From the IMG/VR virus record IMGVR_UViG_3300024259_001623: DNA of 64,000 bases; one strand, 5' to 3'. Shown here piece by piece: positions 2,722 to 11,878 of the stretch. This stretch comes from a virus. Taxonomy: Duplodnaviria > Caudoviricetes. Under the pieces are notes generated by a model. That model was not told the DNA's origin and searched no databases. It saw nothing but the letters and a program-made list of their open reading frames with translations. The position numbers were made by a program, and so were the translations under genes. Every line of letters begins with the position of its first letter. Position 1 is the stretch's first letter.

Positions 2722-3495
2722 TTATAACTCTATAAAACATGTCCTAGAAGAACCAATCACTTTTGTTATAGCTAAACCTAAATCATCTTCGCTTTGTTTT
2801 TGTTTAACATTAAATCTAAAAACAAAAATAGTTGGCAATCCATCTCTAATTCTTTCTATGAAAAATGGATTCATCATTTCACGCTTCCATCTTGTACTGG
2901 AATAAGGAATATCTTCTACAACGAGCCAATCTGCCGATCTTATATCAGATAACTCAGATTCCTCTTGTTTCCGTACCATGTCTTCCAATATAGCATATTC
3001 AATCCAATCATATGTTTGAGCCAAATCTAAACCATTATTAACTCTACTCTTTATAGCTTCTTTCATAATTAGAGAAGCACAAAAAGTTTTTCCCTTTTGC
3101 TCAAACGACTTCACTTTAGGATATATGACAACGTTATCACAGTTGCTTTTTCTCTTATTGATTATAGACACATTATCCAATTCTTTTTGATCCATAGAAT
3201 TGATTTTGTCTAAAGGAATATTCCCCCAGCAATATTTGACTATTTCTTTTTTAGCCGCGACCGCGACTTTAGGCTCTAGCACCTGCAAATTATGTTCTGA
3301 TAATCCATCAAAATCTTTTATGGAGAATTTATAATAAGGTTCAGGTATCACAGCCCTCAAGTATGCTTGAGTCTCTGCAACCAAAGAGCAGATATATCTC
3401 TCTTCATCGGAACATGAATTTATGTCTTTTACTCCGAAAAATTTATATGCAAATATATCTTCTAATTTTGTTTTAAGATCGTTTATGTTTTTCAT
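2722..3495 (-). CDS. DnaC/IstB-like helicase loader (degenerate AAA+)
   Basis: IPEPYYKFSIKDF, KGKTFCAS, 'IRSADWLVVEDI', 'FFIERIRDGLPTIF' resemble DnaC/IstB; adjacent to the DnaB-like gene. Confidence 0.65.
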   Translation of the reverse strand: MKNINDLKTKLEDIFAYKFFGVKDINSCSDEERYICSLVAETQAYLRAVIPEPYYKFSIKDFDGLSEHNLQVLEPKVAVAAKKEIVKYCWGNIPLDKINSMDQKELDNVSIINKRKSNCDNVVIYPKVKSFEQKGKTFCASLIMKEAIKSRVNNGLDLAQTYDWIEYAILEDMVRKQEESELSDIRSADWLVVEDIPYSSTRWKREMMNPFFIERIRDGLPTIFVFRFNVKQKQSEDDLGLAITKVIGSSRTCFIEL

Positions 3496-3496
3496 A

Positions 3497-4591
3497 TTAA
3501 ATATCTATGCCTATCTCTCCACTTTTCCCGACTTTGGTATCATCTCCATTTGCAGGGACACATCTATCTGTTGCCCAATCTCTCATTTCATCGAAATCTT
3601 CTTTTCTCATTGCATACAATGGCTTAAAAGTACCAGCAGCAGTTACAAGATCTTCTGTTTTAATCTCTCTTGCATTATCTCCAAAAGCCTCAAACATGGC
3701 AGTAATGATGCATTTTTCTATTTCCGCACCGCTATAATTTTCTGTAACAGAAGATAATTTGCCAAGATTAAAATCTTTAGGCTTTCTGTTATATCTTCTC
3801 AACAATACTTCAAAAATCTCTCTTCTTTCTTTTGGATTAGGAAGATCAACAAAGAACGTTTCATCAAATCTGCCTGCTCTCATAAATTCTGGGGGGATAG
3901 CCTCATGATCATTTGCAGTACAGAACATAAAGACTGGTGCGGTTTTTTCTTGCATCCAAGTCAAGAACGTTGACACTACTCTACTCGTCGTTCCGCCATC
4001 AGTCTGTCCACTCGATTTTGCTCCAGCTAATCCCTTTTCAATTTCATCACACCATAAAACACAAGGTGCAATCGCTTCTGCTAATTTGATAGCATTTCTG
4101 GAAGCTTCTTCTGATTCTCCTACGTAAGAACCAAACAACTTGCCAAAATCCAATCTCAATAAAGGCATCTGATATAAATCTGCAACAACCTTAGCACATA
4201 AAGACTTTCCCGTATTATGAGAAACAATTCCATTAGAGTAATACTTATGACTTTCGCTTAAAACCTCCAAGTCATAAGTATTATACTTTTCAGATAAAAA
4301 TTCCTTAGTAACAATTTCCACAAATCCATTATCTGTTTCTACCAAATCCTCATTAACAGATAATTGTTCTAAAGACTGCCATCCATTTTTTGTATTAACA
4401 CAATGATCACTGGAGCATTTTAAAACTCTACCATCAGATAATGTCAAACAATAACACTCCTTATTACCCTTATTTACCAAACTACCTATTTTTTGCCACC
4501 CATCAGGCGTATCTATTTCGAACTCGCCTTCTTCTTGAGAAAGTTTAAAAAAATCCTCAATCGCCATTTCTTGTTCGTCATAAAGTTCCAT
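3497..4591 (-). CDS. C-intein (126 aa) fused to the C-terminal half of a Ycf46-like AAA+ ATPase
   Basis: Intein block B (KCSSDH), block F/G (TYDLEV...YYSNGIVSHN), then TGKS, Walker B WCDEIEK, TAN, SRH PPEFMRAGRFDE; own SD AAGGAG. Confidence 0.93.
   Translation of the reverse strand: MELYDEQEMAIEDFFKLSQEEGEFEIDTPDGWQKIGSLVNKGNKECYCLTLSDGRVLKCSSDHCVNTKNGWQSLEQLSVNEDLVETDNGFVEIVTKEFLSEKYNTYDLEVLSESHKYYSNGIVSHNTGKSLCAKVVADLYQMPLLRLDFGKLFGSYVGESEEASRNAIKLAEAIAPCVLWCDEIEKGLAGAKSSGQTDGGTTSRVVSTFLTWMQEKTAPVFMFCTANDHEAIPPEFMRAGRFDETFFVDLPNPKERREIFEVLLRRYNRKPKDFNLGKLSSVTENYSGAEIEKCIITAMFEAFGDNAREIKTEDLVTAAGTFKPLYAMRKEDFDEMRDWATDRCVPANGDDTKVGKSGEIGIDI
4214..4591 (-). mobile_element. Split intein, C-terminal fragment (126 aa)
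   Basis: Ends in His-Asn (AAT at 4214-4216) with +1 Thr; contains blocks B, F and G but no block A. Confidence 0.9.
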
Positions 4592-4595
4592 TTTT

Positions 4596-5489
4596 TTACT
4601 CCTTCAATAAAAATTCCTTAATAAACACATCATCCCACTTTTTTATGAACTTAATTTTCCCATCAAGATATAAACCCTTCAGTTGTTCAGGAGGCATAAT
4701 TTTTACATCAATAATTCGATATTCCATATCATTATCTTTACAAAAAATTTTAGCAGCCTCAACCTTTCTTCTATTATTATCTGTAAACATTAATTTTTTA
4801 GGTTTTATTTCTAATAGCAAACTCTCTTCAATTATAAAATCTGGTCTATATGTTCTACTTCTACCTTTAAAATCTATATATGGAATATTTATTGCCCCCT
4901 CAGCACTTCTCCATTTCAAATTATTTTTTTCAATTACATTAATCATATATGACAACTCACGTAATGATCTAAAATACCAATTATTATACCATCCAGACCA
5001 CCCCCCTCCAGAACCTTTAGGAGAAGGCTTGCCATACATGGGATTATTTTTTCCAGACATTTTTTTAGACTTTATTTCTGCTATCTCTTTTTTTCTATTA
5101 TCTGCATAATTTTTTCCATATTTTGCAACCCAAATATCATATACACTTTTTCCATACATAGGATTATTCTTACCAGAAGTTACATTTGACATTGTTTCCC
5201 TAAAACTGTCTTTTTGTGTATAAGACCTATCCAAACTCTTTAATTTATCTATTGTCTCTCTTGTATGTCTTTTTCCATAAAAAGGATTATTTTCCCCCAT
5301 ATATTTCTTTTTATGTCTATCTGATAATGCATTATACTGTTTTTTCCCCTCATCCGTTAATGCGTACAACTTAAGAGAACAAGACAAACAGGGCTTATTA
5401 CTTCTTATCGCTCTTCTTTTTCCCTTTTCTGTTGTATATGATATCACCTTTTTACACTTAGGACACTCTCTTGTAAACTTTTTTTCCAT
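4596..5489 (-). CDS. Free-standing homing endonuclease-like protein (Zn finger, NUMOD3 repeats, TnsA-N-like PD-(D/E)xK domain)
   Basis: CPKC...CLSC; three NP(F/M)YGK motifs (NUMOD3-like); YRPDFII...LLEIKP...KVEAAKIFC. Start probably ATG 5489 (AGGAG SD) rather than 5528. Confidence 0.8.
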   Translation of the reverse strand: MEKKFTRECPKCKKVISYTTEKGKRRAIRSNKPCLSCSLKLYALTDEGKKQYNALSDRHKKKYMGENNPFYGKRHTRETIDKLKSLDRSYTQKDSFRETMSNVTSGKNNPMYGKSVYDIWVAKYGKNYADNRKKEIAEIKSKKMSGKNNPMYGKPSPKGSGGGWSGWYNNWYFRSLRELSYMINVIEKNNLKWRSAEGAINIPYIDFKGRSRTYRPDFIIEESLLLEIKPKKLMFTDNNRRKVEAAKIFCKDNDMEYRIIDVKIMPPEQLKGLYLDGKIKFIKKWDDVFIKEFLLKE

Positions 5490-5532
5490 AGCGATAGTCT
5501 CTCCTATTGGGCATTCCTGGAATCGCACTATT

Positions 5533-6549
5533 CTATTTCTTATATATTTTTAATTTTCCTTTATTAGAAATTTTTCTTACTTTTATTTTTGTTTCAGGAA
5601 AAACACAACCAGGCATCCCAATTGTCATAACTCCTTTAGGAAAAGGCAACCCATATTTAGAAGCTTCAGAACTGAATCCAACCTTTCTTCTTTCTAGCCA
5701 AGTCATCATATTTTTAAGACCACCGACATCCTTGACAGAGAATTTAGGTTCAAAGAACTCTAAAATACCTTTCTTCCTGATAGTCTGCTGCTTTTCTTTC
5801 AAAATACAATTTATATCAAACTTATTGTGAACAACAATGGATTTAGAAAATGCCATTTGAGCATCTACCAGTGTCAATCCATTAGCAGCCTTTACAATTT
5901 CATCTTCATTTTTCTTAGTCTCTTTAGGAAGATTAGGCAACTTATTTTGAGACTGTATTGCATTAACCAATGACCACAAAGCATTTTTTATCTCATTCTC
6001 GTTAGGATATGGAAAATCCAAAACTGATACTATATCTTCTGTAGCAGGCGTAGTAACAAAGAATGGACCTGTCATAACAACATGAGTCATAGACTCAATA
6101 TCAGCAAACGCCTTCAATCTTCTTTCCAAATCCGGTGGAGCATCATCTAAATACCTATGAAAATCTAAAAGGATATATATATTACCAGAAATCCCTTCGT
6201 CTCTGAAATTCTTTATATTAGCTTCATCCTGCTTGGCACTAGATATAATATGTTCAAGAGCGACCAAGGGATCAGTCAAATCCTCAGAAACTCCAACAGC
6301 TTCCTTTTCTGTTATAAGATCCAATAACCCGTTATAGCAATCCCATATAAAAACTTTATAACCTCTTACGGCAGCAAGATGCCTGAAATAAACTTTCAAT
6401 CTCTGCTCTTCCACGCAGGTCAGATAAACCAAAGGAGCGCGACTTCTTAATAGAGCAAGAATATCATTAGTAAAATCTTCTGTTGCCATTGAGTCTAAAG
6501 CTTTTTGATGCTCTTGATCCAACGTTGATGCTTCTTTTTTCTTAGCCAT
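5533..6549 (-). CDS. N-terminal half of Ycf46-like AAA+ ATPase fused to a 24-aa N-intein
   Basis: LLRSRAPLVYLTCVEEQR, LLDFH, DVGGLKNMMTWL, LPFPKGVMTIGMPG, then CVFPETKIKV... and stop; Walker A is interrupted after GMPG. Confidence 0.92.
   Translation of the reverse strand: MAKKKEASTLDQEHQKALDSMATEDFTNDILALLRSRAPLVYLTCVEEQRLKVYFRHLAAVRGYKVFIWDCYNGLLDLITEKEAVGVSEDLTDPLVALEHIISSAKQDEANIKNFRDEGISGNIYILLDFHRYLDDAPPDLERRLKAFADIESMTHVVMTGPFFVTTPATEDIVSVLDFPYPNENEIKNALWSLVNAIQSQNKLPNLPKETKKNEDEIVKAANGLTLVDAQMAFSKSIVVHNKFDINCILKEKQQTIRKKGILEFFEPKFSVKDVGGLKNMMTWLERRKVGFSSEASKYGLPFPKGVMTIGMPGCVFPETKIKVRKISNKGKLKIYKK
5536..5607 (-). mobile_element. Split intein, N-terminal fragment (24 aa, block A only)
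   Basis: CVFPETKIKVRKISNKGKLKIYKK starts with Cys1 exactly at the Walker A break and fits block A (C-h-x-x-D/E-T-x-h). Confidence 0.88.
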
Positions 6550-6584
6550 GAAAAATCTCCATTTCTTCTTCTATAAAAAATTTA

Positions 6585-7109
6585 TTAAGTCTTAGACACG
6601 TTAGGCAACAACACAGTAGAGATCGTAGAACCTGACATAGAAGGAGCGCTCCATGTGGCGATCTCCGAAAACGGGCTAACAAACTCCTTGAACCTAACCA
6701 TAGCTTCGTCCGACATACTTCTATTTCTTCCCTTTAGTCTCAAAACATACAAAACTTTGTATCCCTTGTCTAGGAATTGTCTTGCCTTTTTATTTTTGAC
6801 TTGCAAATCATGATCGCTTATATTCAAGCCATTAGAAGAGCCATGACCAATGCGTATTTCTTTAGTAACGCTGACATGATGATTCTTTTTTTTGTTTTTC
6901 CCTTCTTTGTACTTCATCTTGCCATAATCAATAATTTTGCATACTGGATTACTTCTATCTTGAGAAAATTGAACTAAATTCAACCCCTCTTCCTCAGCCA
7001 TATTGATAGCGACTTGCTTATCGACTATACCAACATTTTCTCCACTAGACGAAATCAATCTTACGGATTTGCTTTCGATCTGATAATCCACCTTCTTGTT
7101 TTGGACCAT
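6585..7109 (-). CDS. infC: Translation initiation factor IF-3
   Basis: VRLISSSGENVGIV, AEEEGLNLV, PVCKIIDYGKMKY, KEIRI, DHDLQVKNKKARQFLDKGYKV, LKGR. Confidence 0.95.
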   Translation of the reverse strand: MVQNKKVDYQIESKSVRLISSSGENVGIVDKQVAINMAEEEGLNLVQFSQDRSNPVCKIIDYGKMKYKEGKNKKKNHHVSVTKEIRIGHGSSNGLNISDHDLQVKNKKARQFLDKGYKVLYVLRLKGRNRSMSDEAMVRFKEFVSPFSEIATWSAPSMSGSTISTVLLPNVSKT

Positions 7110-7111
7110 TT

Positions 7112-8038
7112 CTAATTAACTCTCCTTATTTTCCAATTTGGAAATTCATTAAACTTTATTTCTTCGTTAAAACTAAAATCAATACCACACTTTGTCTCAA
7201 AAAACATTTTGAATTCTTTAATATCCTTAAAAACGAAATCACTAGGATATTCAAAATTATTATTAATATCCAAAATATCGTTTAGCACCTTACTTTCTTT
7301 ATTATATATGTCCAACAACGCACATGAAACTTTTTTAAATGCATTTTCTTTAGACATATTTTTTTCCATCATAAAAAAGTTGACTGGAATAATTACGCCA
7401 AAATTCAAAACTAAACTATTAACACTCAAAAGATAAAAATCTTCTACATCAGACAGAGAGACATATACATCTTTTTCTTTTTGAATCTCCTGCTGGTCTT
7501 CGCTAAATTTATCTTTAACATTAGTTTGCTTAACGCTTGCTTTATAATTGTAAGATGATATAAAAGAATCTATAGGACTATATTCTCTCATGTCTCTCAA
7601 CCAAAATTTTGACTTTCTTTCTAAAACATAATAGTCTAACCAATTATTATAGAAATAATCGATATAATCTTTAAGAACGATATTATCACAAAATCCAAAA
7701 TACTCTCTTATAGATTCTTTAATATTACCTAAATATGTAACAACTAAAGTAGATTTCATATCCCAAATTCTGTGATACTTCTCTTTGAATTCACCAGACA
7801 TATATATTGTGAAATCTCTTTGGTTCCAATTTAACAAACTGTCTTTTTTTATAACCCATTGACTCTTGGGAGCTACATATATGTCTTCCCAAGAACTTTT
7901 ACTATTCTCTATTATCTCAACTTCCTGAGATTCAATTTGTTTAAGTCTATTATCCTTTTTATTATTACCAGTTTCAGTTTTCTTTATAGCACTAGATATA
8001 ATAGATTCAACATTCATATTTTTATTCTTCCTTTTCAT
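7112..8038 (-). CDS. Hypothetical protein
   Basis: 308-aa ORF tightly packed with neighbours; no recognised motif. Confidence 0.8.
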   Translation of the reverse strand: MKRKNKNMNVESIISSAIKKTETGNNKKDNRLKQIESQEVEIIENSKSSWEDIYVAPKSQWVIKKDSLLNWNQRDFTIYMSGEFKEKYHRIWDMKSTLVVTYLGNIKESIREYFGFCDNIVLKDYIDYFYNNWLDYYVLERKSKFWLRDMREYSPIDSFISSYNYKASVKQTNVKDKFSEDQQEIQKEKDVYVSLSDVEDFYLLSVNSLVLNFGVIIPVNFFMMEKNMSKENAFKKVSCALLDIYNKESKVLNDILDINNNFEYPSDFVFKDIKEFKMFFETKCGIDFSFNEEIKFNEFPNWKIRRVN

Positions 8039-9121: not shown

Positions 9122-11878
9122 TTATTCTTCTTGTAATTCTTTGATATTAAACTGAGGTTCAGTCTTGTAAATTCTTTTACGAGTATCAGAATGCTTTGTA
9201 AGATATTCACAGTGGTCCTTGAAATCTATAACCAGAGCAGATTCCTTTTTGTAATCGCCGCTCGTAAATGGCCTGAGAACTCGCCCAACCCTCTGTAAGG
9301 CCCTCGTTTTGCTTTTACCACCGCCAGCTAGTATTAACGTGTCTAGGGGCCTACAATCGACTCCTTCATCGAATATAGAGGTAGCTATAGTTATCGCAGC
9401 ATCCCTATCTCTATTTCTCATCTTAGATAGATGGGCTTTTCGCTGCTTCCCAGAATGGACTCCATGCAAAAATGTACTTCCATCTATCATTTCACTTAAT
9501 AAATTACCATGATTAACTTGCTGGCATAATATCAAAATATTTTTACCATTTTCTTCAAAAGATTTAGCCATATTGGCAATATATTCATTTCTAACAGAAT
9601 TTTCTACTATTCCCTGTTTATAATAAGACTGGTAATTAAACAACTTACCAGGCATCCCTTTTCTAATAGGAACAAAATAAATATCGGGCTTGACGAGATA
9701 ACCTCTTTCGATCAAAAAAGAAGCTGATACATTTGCTATTTCTCTTCCGAAACAGGCATCGATTAATATATCATCTCCCTTGTCTCGCATAGGAGTCGCT
9801 GACATACCATACCTATATCTTGCATTACTAGAATAATCAGATATAACTTGACATGTATCTGATGCCCAATGCTGACAATTATGAACTAAAATATCATTAG
9901 CAAAAAAACAATGAGTGTCTTCAACTGTTATGTCATAAACATTATCTGATCCGCAATCTTCGATACTACTTATGCCAACGTAATTTGTATTCCATGTGTT
10001 TAGAGATGTGGTCTTTAACAACTCCGTAGATATTTCCTCTTGCTTCTTTCGATATATACAAGACATAATATTTTTTTTTGTATTTATGGATTGTTGATTT
10101 TCCATATTTGGCATTAAACCAATCAGCGCACAATTCGACTTCTGGTAAAGAAAATCCTTCTGTATGTAATCGTAGGCTATTATGAGTTGCTGAACCATCA
10201 TCTCCGATCCACCAAGCCAAGCCAACAGGTCCGATGAGATCAAGCCACTCTTTATTGACTCGTTTTTTACCATCTTTATATACAATCTTATAAATTCCAG
10301 AAAAACATGACGAACAAGGTGTATAACAAGAAATTGTGGTATCTCCATACCCGCCATTCGGGGATATATAATATTTAGGAGATAATCTGTCAAGAAAATC
10401 TGCCTTATACTTTGCCCAACCTTCTTGACATAACCCATGATTGTACACCAATCTTGGAGTTTTACTTCTTTGTGAAGGAAATGATAAACAAGAATCTCCC
10501 AAAAGTGTGCCAAAAATTGCTTGTGATTCTTTTTTAAGTAATGACAATCCCCACAAGTTATTCCTTTTATCATGTCCATAAATGTATTTTCTGTATTTTT
10601 TTGCCCCTTTATTTTTAATAAATGATTCCAATGATGTATATTTTGGCCGCACTTTTCCTCCGCAGCCGCATTTACATTTCGGAGCATTCTCGACAAACTC
10701 TTGGAAAACTTTTTTCCAATCCTCATTAGATCTTTTTCTGATTTGATGACCGAGGATATACTTTGGGTATCTACTCGGGCTTCGACCAAAGACTTCAATT
10801 TTTCCTCCGCAACCACATCTGCACATGACAAAATCTTGTCTGTTTTTTTTATGTCTCCTGCTTGAACCCATCCTTTCTGCGTTTTTATTAAATGATTTTT
10901 TGTACATTTTATATATCTACCTGAATCTAATACTATTTTAATAATAGAGTGTCTACCCTTATACATAAAATTAGTTATTTTCTTCCATACAACACTAGTT
11001 CCATCAAAACTAAGTATATCCTCTCCAATAAAATTAGAAAGTTCTGACATTTTTTTTCTACCACTTCTTGTGACAACTATAGAATCACCAGTTATGCATT
11101 CATCAGCAATGAATCCCTTTGAAGACATAATAATATCTAAAATGTCTTTACGCCTTTCAGATAAAATATTCTTCTCTGCTTTACTAATTTTCTTTGTTTT
11201 ATCTTCTTCGTCAAATCTGACGTATTTTTTACCACAAGCCAAAACAGCAGTTTGGATTGTCATAATAGTTATATCTTGAACATCAAATTTTCCACCACCG
11301 ACTATACCAACCTTAATAGGAATATTATTATAACGCAAAAACTTTTCAAACTCTTCTTTTGTTTGAGTTAAAAGATCTACAGATGGCACATAAAAAATAA
11401 ATGGAGATATTCCTAGTTCTGCAATAAGACCAGCAGCAATAGAAGTTTTTCCACCACCAGTGGCTACTTTGATAATGCCCCTTTGCATTTTAGAAGCTTG
11501 ATGTATAATAGTCTGCTGATAGTCTCTTGTTTCAAAATCATTAGACATATTCAATGATATATTTTTTGCTACAGGTTCTCTCTCATCGAATATGTCAAAT
11601 GGAACAGAATTTTTTACAAAATGATCTCTAGCTTTATTAAAAAGACCAGTTGGGAAATGCGTTCCATCCTTTTTTATTGCACATTTACAATATTTTTTGC
11701 AATAACAAAGGGTAGACTCTATGCCGTCCCATTTTGCATCGGAGCCTCTGACTTGAAAAATGGCCCCTTCTGGACGGTATCCTAAAAGTTTTCTCAAACC
11801 CTGATAAACATCAGAATCTAATCTTCCCTGAATATAAGTCTTTGTATTGGTTACTAATAATTTTATTTTATTTTTCAT
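9122..11878 (-). CDS. SF2 DExH helicase (UvsW/XPB-like), intein-containing; about 511 aa after splicing
   Basis: RDYQ, ATGGGKT, ADE[intein]CQH, GMSATPMR, IFDEGVD, QRVGRVLR. Confidence 0.92.
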   Translation of the reverse strand: MKNKIKLLVTNTKTYIQGRLDSDVYQGLRKLLGYRPEGAIFQVRGSDAKWDGIESTLCYCKKYCKCAIKKDGTHFPTGLFNKARDHFVKNSVPFDIFDEREPVAKNISLNMSNDFETRDYQQTIIHQASKMQRGIIKVATGGGKTSIAAGLIAELGISPFIFYVPSVDLLTQTKEEFEKFLRYNNIPIKVGIVGGGKFDVQDITIMTIQTAVLACGKKYVRFDEEDKTKKISKAEKNILSERRKDILDIIMSSKGFIADECITGDSIVVTRSGRKKMSELSNFIGEDILSFDGTSVVWKKITNFMYKGRHSIIKIVLDSGRYIKCTKNHLIKTQKGWVQAGDIKKTDKILSCADVVAEEKLKSLVEARVDTQSISSVIKSEKDLMRIGKKFSKSLSRMLRNVNAAAEEKCGQNIHHWNHLLKIKGQKNTENTFMDMIKGITCGDCHYLKKNHKQFLAHFWEILVYHFLHKEVKLQDWCTIMGYVKKVGQSIRQIFLTDYLLNIIYPRMAGMEIPQFLVIHLVRHVFLEFIRLYIKMVKNESIKSGLISSDLLAWLGGSEMMVQQLIIAYDYIQKDFLYQKSNCALIGLMPNMENQQSINTKKNIMSCIYRKKQEEISTELLKTTSLNTWNTNYVGISSIEDCGSDNVYDITVEDTHCFFANDILVHNCQHWASDTCQVISDYSSNARYRYGMSATPMRDKGDDILIDACFGREIANVSASFLIERGYLVKPDIYFVPIRKGMPGKLFNYQSYYKQGIVENSVRNEYIANMAKSFEENGKNILILCQQVNHGNLLSEMIDGSTFLHGVHSGKQRKAHLSKMRNRDRDAAITIATSIFDEGVDCRPLDTLILAGGGKSKTRALQRVGRVLRPFTSGDYKKESALVIDFKDHCEYLTKHSDTRKRIYKTEPQFNIKELQEE
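9878..11098 (-). mobile_element. Intein (407 aa) in helicase Walker B, with an out-of-frame homing endonuclease
   Basis: Begins CITGDSIVVT (TGC 11096-11098), block B KCTKNHLI, ends VYDITVEDTHCFFANDILVHN with +1 Cys; removal restores DECQH. Confidence 0.93.
9966..10907 (-). CDS. LAGLIDADG_2-type homing endonuclease overprinted in the -1 frame inside the helicase intein
   Basis: Two CxCGCGG motifs, AIFGTLLGDSCL, GLAWWIGDDGS, LRLHTEGFS; offset 971 nt (mod 3 = 2) from the helicase start. Real start may be ATG 10826 (MCRCGCGG). Confidence 0.88.
   Translation of the reverse strand: MYKKSFNKNAERMGSSRRHKKNRQDFVMCRCGCGGKIEVFGRSPSRYPKYILGHQIRKRSNEDWKKVFQEFVENAPKCKCGCGGKVRPKYTSLESFIKNKGAKKYRKYIYGHDKRNNLWGLSLLKKESQAIFGTLLGDSCLSFPSQRSKTPRLVYNHGLCQEGWAKYKADFLDRLSPKYYISPNGGYGDTTISCYTPCSSCFSGIYKIVYKDGKKRVNKEWLDLIGPVGLAWWIGDDGSATHNSLRLHTEGFSLPEVELCADWFNAKYGKSTIHKYKKKYYVLYISKEARGNIYGVVKDHISKHMEYKLRWHK

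Follow-up and report, generated by a model that had tools for sequence, protein, structure and literature searches.

Naturally split inteins of the atypical kind, with an N-terminal piece (IntN) of 15–37 aa, are established tools (PMC13014065), and five natural ones are named in papers of 2023–2026: AceL-TerL, GOS-TerL, two VidaL inteins and PolB16 OarG. VidaL is a characterised atypical split intein with a 16-aa IntN and with entries 6vgv and 6vgw in PDB (Neugebauer et al. 2017; Burton et al. 2020; both cited in PMC13014065). The GOS-TerL locus was described as "fractured at an unusual point", its 122-residue C part being without motif N1 only (Dassa et al. 2009, PMC2677866). The same study described fractured genes, mainly from phage, in which an N-extein fused to its IntN is followed by a spacer of 27–51 nt, a free-standing endonuclease gene, and the C-terminal intein piece (IntC) fused to the C-extein. 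Insertion into the P-loop, which is encoded by the most conserved DNA of a gene, is a recurrent "safe haven" of inteins, as in RFC-S site a, DnaB and MCM (Novikova et al. 2016, PMC4760082).

Here we analysed a stretch of 64,000 nt from a virus of the Caudoviricetes (IMG/VR record IMGVR_UViG_3300024259_001623), and we refer to this whole stretch as the window. Three consecutive genes on its minus strand, on which all features of the locus lie, very probably represent a fractured gene for a Ycf46-like AAA+ ATPase of a large marine phage, as read from the sequence; the two halves of the ATPase would be joined by a split intein through trans-splicing, and the nuclease encoded between them would be the engine of its mobility. 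The intein itself looks like a genuine, probably active, atypically split class-1 intein.

The open reading frame (ORF) of the N half (6549..5533, 338 aa) ends with ...KGVMTIGMPG followed by CVFPETKIKVRKISNKGKLKIYKK and a TAG stop codon. The ORF of the C half (4591..3497, 364 aa) begins with MELYDEQEMAIEDFF; its residue 126 closes the intein (...YYSNGIVSHN) and from residue 127 on it reads TGKSLCAKVV. Both halves match PHROG 8638 (568 positions, function unknown), the N half at positions 16–316 and the C half at 315–544, and since these matches meet at 315/316, the two ORFs are abutting pieces of one protein family. Pfam placed AAA (2.8e-23) and AAA_lid_3 (8.4e-08) on the C half, from residue 126, and gave no match in a scan of the N-half protein. 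The initial annotation, made from the letters and their ORFs, had proposed a 24-aa N part and a 126-aa C part that break the Walker A motif at GMPG and SHN-TGKS, an AAGGAG Shine-Dalgarno sequence belonging to the C half, exteins of 314 and 238 residues adding up to 552 aa, and 9 K/R with 1 E in IntN facing 12 D/E with 1 K in the first 30 residues of IntC. On reading both ORFs, all these figures turned out to be exact, and the AAGGAG was located at 4604..4599, 7 nt ahead of the C-half ATG. The arrangement needed correction: the two split halves stand, whereas their simple adjacency does not, as a nuclease gene sits between them, which makes the locus one of the fractured gene type. The AAGGAG is also the last two sense codons (AAG GAG) of this nuclease gene, whose TAA stop codon (4598..4596) ends 4 nt before the ATG of the C half.

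The intein pieces show the features of the atypically split type, i.e. separate genes, a 24-aa IntN with block A only and an IntC with blocks B, F and G. At the N-terminal junction, GMPG/CVFPET... (slashes mark junctions), the Cys is the first intein residue and starts the block-A pattern CVxxxTxIxV. Block B is present as LKCSSDHCV, of the (T/S)xxH type, and the C-terminal junction, GIVSHN/TGKS, has the terminal His-Asn and then Thr at position +1. In an alignment of ten relatives (A1), the block-B His63, the block-F Asp107 and Leu108, and the terminal Ser-His-Asn were invariant. The best sequence match of IntC in PDB was VidaL (6vgv_A, E 1.4e-12, query residues 5–129 against chain residues 22–145), and the next were gp41-1, Npu DnaB, the CatC of the consensus TerL intein (6dsl_B, E 5.4e-05) and others. 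The NCBIfam model TIGR01443 (intein_Cterm) scored 22.4 bits on IntC, over its cut-off of 15.6. A PDB sequence search with the 39-aa tail of the N half returned AAA P-loop matches only and none for IntN, which is too short for such a search.

Some expectations about this intein had to be revised. Known atypical split inteins had been taken as confined to terminases, and the literature lists VidaL and PolB16 OarG too; the closest solved relative of IntC is VidaL and not the TerL inteins. Thr at +1 had been pointed out; it is ordinary together with Cys1, occurring in 12% of Cys1 inteins (review PMC11766414) and in 48 of the 94 split relatives described below, in which the remaining +1 residues are Cys (24) and Ser (22). 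The +1 residue of intein-bearing alleles is always C, S or T, while uninterrupted homologues also have G, A or V at this position, and this limitation argues for selection for splicing chemistry. The charge complementarity suggested earlier was right in its sign, which was the expected one in all ten matched pairs (IntN net +2 to +10, IntC residues 1–30 net -1 to -11; +8 and -11 in the window), and did not hold as a strong effect throughout, being weak in some pairs.

When joined in silico, the exteins give a protein of 552 aa with the P-loop GMPGTGKS, which aligns end to end with full-length homologues, the junction included, with no gap there; its identity is 64% to P0178 (553 aa) and 51–59% to five others. 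The uninterrupted homologues that the initial annotation had proposed to look for do exist, with the junction GxPG/xGKS. Most relatives of the ATPase in IMG/VR are single genes in which the matches of the N- and C-exteins abut exactly (L003–L008, L030 and many more), and a protein search with the N half returned about 40 full-length proteins of 480–590 aa with GxPG[C/T/G/A/V]GKS. The assignment of the host protein as Ycf46-like was confirmed by fold on P0178: its AlphaFold model (predicted local distance difference test score, pLDDT, 85) had five plastid Ycf46 matches over residues 13–536, nearly its whole length, with template modelling (TM) scores of 0.79–0.91, 35–37% identity and E values down to 1e-48, well ahead of those to Cdc48, PEX or AFG2.

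L001, L016, L050/L051 and L130–L132 share both this three-gene layout and the host family, with an IntN of 24 aa (e.g. CVLKNTKVKIKKISNKGKLKIHKK) and with C or T at +1. Among the matches of the N-half search, 17 proteins have at their end an IntN of 24–25 aa (35 aa in one of them), with the consensus CV...TKIKIKKIS..GK.KI. As these N halves and many C halves come from other metagenomes, the break is not a matter of chance or a single lesion; it looks like a conserved, selected state. L002 has the same split without the nuclease gene; TAG is followed, after ~50 nt, by GGAG and ATG. A frameshift divides the nuclease gene of L130 and L132 into two ORFs, it is whole in L131, and the intein pieces are intact in all three. 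Decay or loss of the nuclease together with retention of the intein pieces would be expected if the ATPase cannot be made without them.

For the fold, we used P0034, a contiguous relative of the split intein from another AAA+ host, which reads ...SPG/CVIKGTKIKIRKKNNKGKHTIICD-(linker)-MHIGEEKEVDIQDFF...GIVSHN/CGKT and is identical to the window at 45% of IntC and at 13 of the 24 residues of the IntN part. The model of P0034:290-465 (pLDDT 90.3) is a HINT domain, and its best PDB match is VidaL (TM score 0.90 by target, root-mean-square deviation 2.2 Å). By the sequence of IntC and by this fold, we assign the intein to the clade of VidaL. The part equivalent to IntN is a beta-hairpin with strands at model residues 14–21 and 28–30 (pLDDT 87–97). 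It is followed by a poorly predicted linker at residues ~31–49 (mean pLDDT 61 over 31–40), and then by a strand and a helix equivalent to EMAIEDFFKL of the window IntC. Because the low-confidence linker of this model lies there, the break in the window is predicted to fall in a surface loop after the first hairpin, i.e. of the "S1" type and at about the same place as that of VidaL.

In the mechanism that we propose, a class-1 mini-intein interrupts the ATPase gene between GMPG and TGKS, and the nuclease gene breaks the intein after its first beta-hairpin, so that three proteins would be made: the N-extein with the 24-aa IntN, the endonuclease, and the 126-aa IntC with the C-extein. The basic IntN hairpin would dock on the acidic N-terminal region of IntC, which is nearly complete by itself, and complete the HINT fold, upon which protein trans-splicing may proceed through Cys1, the His of block B, the His-Asn at the end and Thr+1, giving the 552-aa ATPase with an intact GMPGTGKS P-loop and releasing the intein pieces. 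The nuclease presumably cuts uninterrupted alleles at or near the Walker-A DNA, and the cassette of intein and nuclease would then be copied in by repair; as the cassette disrupts its own target, the carrier would be protected.

A joint between pieces of different genomes, made in assembly or binning, would be conceivable for a record of metagenome type such as the window; we give it practically no weight. At least 16 contigs, which come from several samples of JGI, ENA and Logan and belong to several projects, have the identical C half, and in every listed locus that is long enough the gene order is the same: the gene of an IF3-like protein, N half, nuclease, C half, a 257-aa ORF, DnaB and a DnaG zinc ribbon. 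Furthermore, 22 seawater or marine metagenome runs, and no RNA run, contain all or part of the three-gene stretch, and single contigs of independent seawater runs cover 3489–6011 and 4382–5838 with 0 differences and no joints, so that every junction is bridged by contigs of other runs. Diverged relatives share the layout and the neighbours, the IF3-like gene upstream and the 257-aa ORF and DnaB downstream. These contigs also settle the concern, raised with the initial annotation, that reads might reveal a misassembly. Removal of the middle part from the RNA, by a group I or group II intron that carries the nuclease ORF or by bypass, with the intein-like residues being incidental, was also raised with the initial annotation and is hardly more credible, even though phage genes often contain homing endonucleases, both free-standing and intron-borne. 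Rfam detected no intron or other RNA family in 3300–6800 on either strand at E <= 1, and the sequence on both sides of the nuclease gene codes, in the frames of the exteins, for a conserved HINT domain that has all splicing blocks. Moreover, the halves in L002 are separated by no more than the short gap with its stop codon, new Shine-Dalgarno sequence and ATG, and the contiguous P0034 reads through as one protein.

The remaining alternative is that the halves are never ligated, either because the intein pieces have decayed to association domains, leaving a two-subunit ATPase, or because the gene is dead and there is no ATPase. It has a precedent in the fragmented NrdA of an Aeromonas phage, which is reportedly held together by interaction domains of mobile-element origin (PMC3045599). 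We consider it unlikely, and still the most plausible of the three alternatives. Binding of ATP is unlikely for a P-loop made from two chains (GMPG and TGKS) with 24 and 126 additional residues; all split alleles examined retain Cys1, the block-B His, the His-Asn and a nucleophile at +1, which argues for selection for the splicing chemistry and not for binding alone; and both split ORFs are intact in many diverged genomes (42–67% identity). Trans-splicing through a split intein is the reading that we prefer, and four points weigh against it. The Pfam model Intein_splicing scored 26.8 bits on IntC, under its curated cut-off of 35.8. The charges of the L002 pair are weak (+2 and -1). The structural argument is built on the natural contiguous relative P0034 and not on the two chains of the window. 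Finally, atypical split inteins have a topology problem, in that the N-extein must pass through IntC or be wrapped by it (review PMC11766414), and with a natural N-extein of 314 residues the efficiency of splicing is uncertain.

Table 1. Coordinates of the features of the fractured ATPase locus in the window
Feature	Position	Strand	Evidence
N-extein, residues 1–314 of the Ycf46-like AAA+ ATPase, ending GMPG (first half of Walker A)	5608..6549	-	PHROG 8638 positions 16–316; gapless against uninterrupted homologues
Predicted IntN, 24 codons (CVFPETKIKVRKISNKGKLKIYKK) and TAG; Cys1 and block A only; net charge +8	5533..5607	-	17 homologous N halves; P0034 hairpin
Spacer of 43 nt from the N-half stop codon to the nuclease ATG; AGGAGAG at 5505..5499	5490..5532	-	sequence reading
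Free-standing putative homing endonuclease gene, 297 aa from ATG 5489	4596..5489	-	Pfam; PHROG 15427
AAGGAG Shine-Dalgarno sequence of the C-half gene	4599..4604	-	sequence reading
Predicted IntC, 126 codons: blocks B (SSDH, His63), F and G (GIVSHN); first 30 residues net -11	4214..4591	-	TIGR01443; VidaL 6vgv match
C-extein, 238 codons and stop codon: TGKS (second half of Walker A), Walker B, AAA lid	3497..4213	-	Pfam AAA and AAA_lid_3; PHROG 8638 positions 315–544

A HMMER search with IntC against 1.84 billion representative proteins gave 1152 matches at E <= 0.001, 119 of them at E <= 1e-10. We examined 171 relatives, namely the best 150 representatives and the matches of an earlier search, and counted as split those in which IntC starts within 12 residues of the protein start. 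This was the case in 94 of the 171, and their C-exteins were Ycf46-like (18), T4-type TerL (16), DnaB/gp41-like (12), Clp-like (8), another AAA+ family (7), DnaX (5), SF1 helicase (1), SF2 helicase (1) or unassigned (26). Inteins of this kind are not rare. A maximum-likelihood tree built from the intein parts set the TerL inteins apart in a clade of their own (100/100) and put the inteins hosted by AAA+ proteins into one group of 40 in which the hosts are interleaved. The nearest to the window IntC was P0004, from a different AAA+ host, with 63% identity, in a weakly supported pairing (85/59). This pattern suggests movement of the intein between non-orthologous P-loops, in a tree built on a short alignment with many forks open.

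Forms other than the simple split were also seen among the relatives. P0034 (L133:2501-4543) is a contiguous or re-fused intein, in which an IntN-like hairpin continues through the in-frame linker into an IntC that has retained the start MHIGEEKE, and in P0044 and P0055 nuclease-derived sequence is fused in frame to IntC; these three look like intermediates between the split and contiguous forms. In four Clp-like proteins (P0017, P0019, P0021 and P0025), an IntC of this kind stands at the start, at the first Walker A, and these pieces end in a second short IntN-like piece right after the GxSGxGK of the second AAA module (e.g. ...GNSGVGK/CLCKETIVTLRNKKTNKIEKIDISNLIYTIKH-stop), which implies a putative Clp ATPase in three pieces. 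In L134, also Clp-like, neither partner gene is adjacent.

Relatives of the window ATPase carry a second insertion, at Walker B, with the junctions AEAIAP/C(V/I)...HN/CILWIDE (L016:6534-7060; P0007, P0009 and P0010). The intein is contiguous in L016 and P0010, and an unread insert of ~1.4 kb lies at the same place in L018, L022 and L033. P0029 (851 aa) gave a weak Pfam match to LAGLIDADG_3 and one to Intein_splicing, which would be consistent with a second intein of the LAGLIDADG type. One gene can have two or three inteins. Partial inteins that had appeared in L009, L011, L025 and L040 were rejected as tblastn over-extensions; these genes are uninterrupted.

The nuclease gene between the halves could start at ATG 5489 (297 aa) or at an in-frame GTG at 5528 (310 aa), and the ATG is favoured because homologues align from residue 14; AGGAGAG stands 9 nt upstream of it. 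Pfam detected three NUMOD3 motifs (4.1e-13) and Tn7_TnsA-like_N (9.6e-08), both over their curated cut-offs, and no match to GIY-YIG or Vsr. The N-terminus has a Cys4 zinc-ribbon-like motif, and the protein also matches PHROG 15427, annotated as 'endonuclease'. The relatives L001 and L016 retain its classical PD...ExK signature, RPDFII...LLEIKP. No meaningful match to the nuclease came from a sequence search of PDB. No description of a homing endonuclease that combines NUMOD3 with a TnsA-like domain was found in the open-access literature, which is weak evidence of novelty.

Relatives of the nuclease occur on 160 stretches in IMG/VR. Some of them lie in fractured genes with the same intein, in Ycf46-like, another AAA+ and Clp-like hosts (L050–L052, L065, L069, L071 and L090). 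At free-standing loci without an intein (within L053–L087), the next ORF has a strict Walker A ([AG]xxxxGK[STDN]) in its first 60 residues in 14 of 30 cases, as compared to 13 of 473 control ORFs from the same loci, and several more of the next ORFs have a relaxed Walker A. These downstream genes encode small P-loop NTPases or kinases, with the Walker A within the first ~10–40 residues. Such association of genes suggests that the nuclease family targets Walker-A-coding DNA. A wider proposal, on which we remain rather doubtful, is that the family recognises Walker A DNA (GxxGxGK[S/T]) in general and that the cassette is a "P-loop hopper" between non-orthologous ATPases. If so, the nuclease would be free-standing directly upstream of small P-loop kinases with the Walker A in the first few dozen codons, and where the Walker A is deep within a gene it would persist only inside an intein that it breaks; the cassette could move among Ycf46-like, other AAA+, Clp, DnaX and SF1 helicase genes, and the frequent splitting at the atypical site in this intein clade would be explained.

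In one contig of seawater run X7, there is a 1-nt deletion at window position 5101, in a T-run inside the nuclease gene, which is either a frameshifted variant of the nuclease in the population or an assembly error. In the four seawater runs examined, no intein-free allele of the window phage was seen, and in the GenBank phage collection blastn had no match to window positions 3000–7200.

The next gene upstream of the fractured ATPase gene encodes a homologue of translation initiation factor IF3 (6585..7109, minus strand; Pfam IF3_N and IF3_C, on an identical gene), and this neighbour is kept in the diverged relatives L001, L002, L016 and L130. A promoter and terminator scan of the region gave no signal above chance. 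Folding of the spacer upstream of the nuclease gene gave no significant hairpin, and the hairpins of Dassa et al. are not evident here. A terminator-like hairpin with a T-run at 5605..5625 (minus strand) overlaps the codons of the N-terminal junction (TIGMPGCVFPE); such sites were no commoner than in shuffled sequences, and it is probably due to chance. Elsewhere in the window, a 918-aa ORF (9122..11878, minus strand) has a separate intein, which matched IntC at 10987..10733 (tblastn, 22% identity, E 1.6e-07), and a 313-aa ORF (9966..10907) overlaps it in another frame of the same strand. This weak match was the only sign of a further IntC copy within the 64 kb.

An N piece short enough for peptide synthesis is sought for protein semisynthesis and for protein editing in live cells. 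With its 24-aa N piece and its native GMPG and TGKS junctions, this locus is a further natural example of the Cys1/Thr+1 pairing, and the pool of ~94 IntC-first sequence clusters, which offer native exteins of many ATPases and a +1 residue of C, S or T, is a candidate source of others. The main value of the locus is as a pointer to this large pool of short-IntN split inteins and to a nuclease family that is apparently linked to P-loop DNA. In the phage ATPase itself, the ATP-binding loop would come into being only when the protein is ligated. One family shows several stages of the homing cycle side by side, from the contiguous intein to the split form with a nuclease, the form with a decayed nuclease and the nuclease-free split.

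The element is of a known kind, in which the host, the insertion site and the type of endonuclease are new, the last being apparently undescribed. No intein in a Ycf46-family ATPase was found in the open-access literature, in which an unrelated plastid-genome paper was the only hit. Unlike the window element, the P-loop inteins reviewed in PMC4760082 are contiguous and lie in cellular replication proteins, and no host of the Ycf46 family is mentioned there. Like VidaL, it has Cys1, a short N piece with block A only, a long C piece with blocks B, F and G, and a break at about the same place of the fold. It differs from VidaL in the length of IntN (24 compared to 16 aa), with an extra basic second strand (KLKIYKK), in having ~27% identity at the fold level, and in its insertion at the Walker A of a Ycf46-like AAA+ ATPase. 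AceL-TerL, GOS-TerL and Cat-TerL (IntN of 25, 37 and 30 aa, respectively) are likewise natural and phage-borne, with a short IntN and a long IntC; however, the TerL inteins belong to their own fully supported clade in the IntC tree and have another host and another insertion site. With the fractured genes of Dassa et al., the locus shares the order on one strand, a 43-nt spacer that lies within their 27–51 nt, the phage origin and the occurrence of variants without the homing endonuclease. On the other hand, the canonical split site (IntN of 88–105 aa) is used in 26 of their 27 loci, and the proteins interrupted there are gp41, IMPDH, DnaE, NrdA/J, ligase and terminase, with no AAA+ ATPase among them. 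Their endonucleases are GIY-YIG or Vsr-like (EDxHD), whereas that of the window combines NUMOD3 with a TnsA-like PD-(D/E)xK domain, and this mismatch is a property of the examples described so far and not of the fractured gene arrangement.

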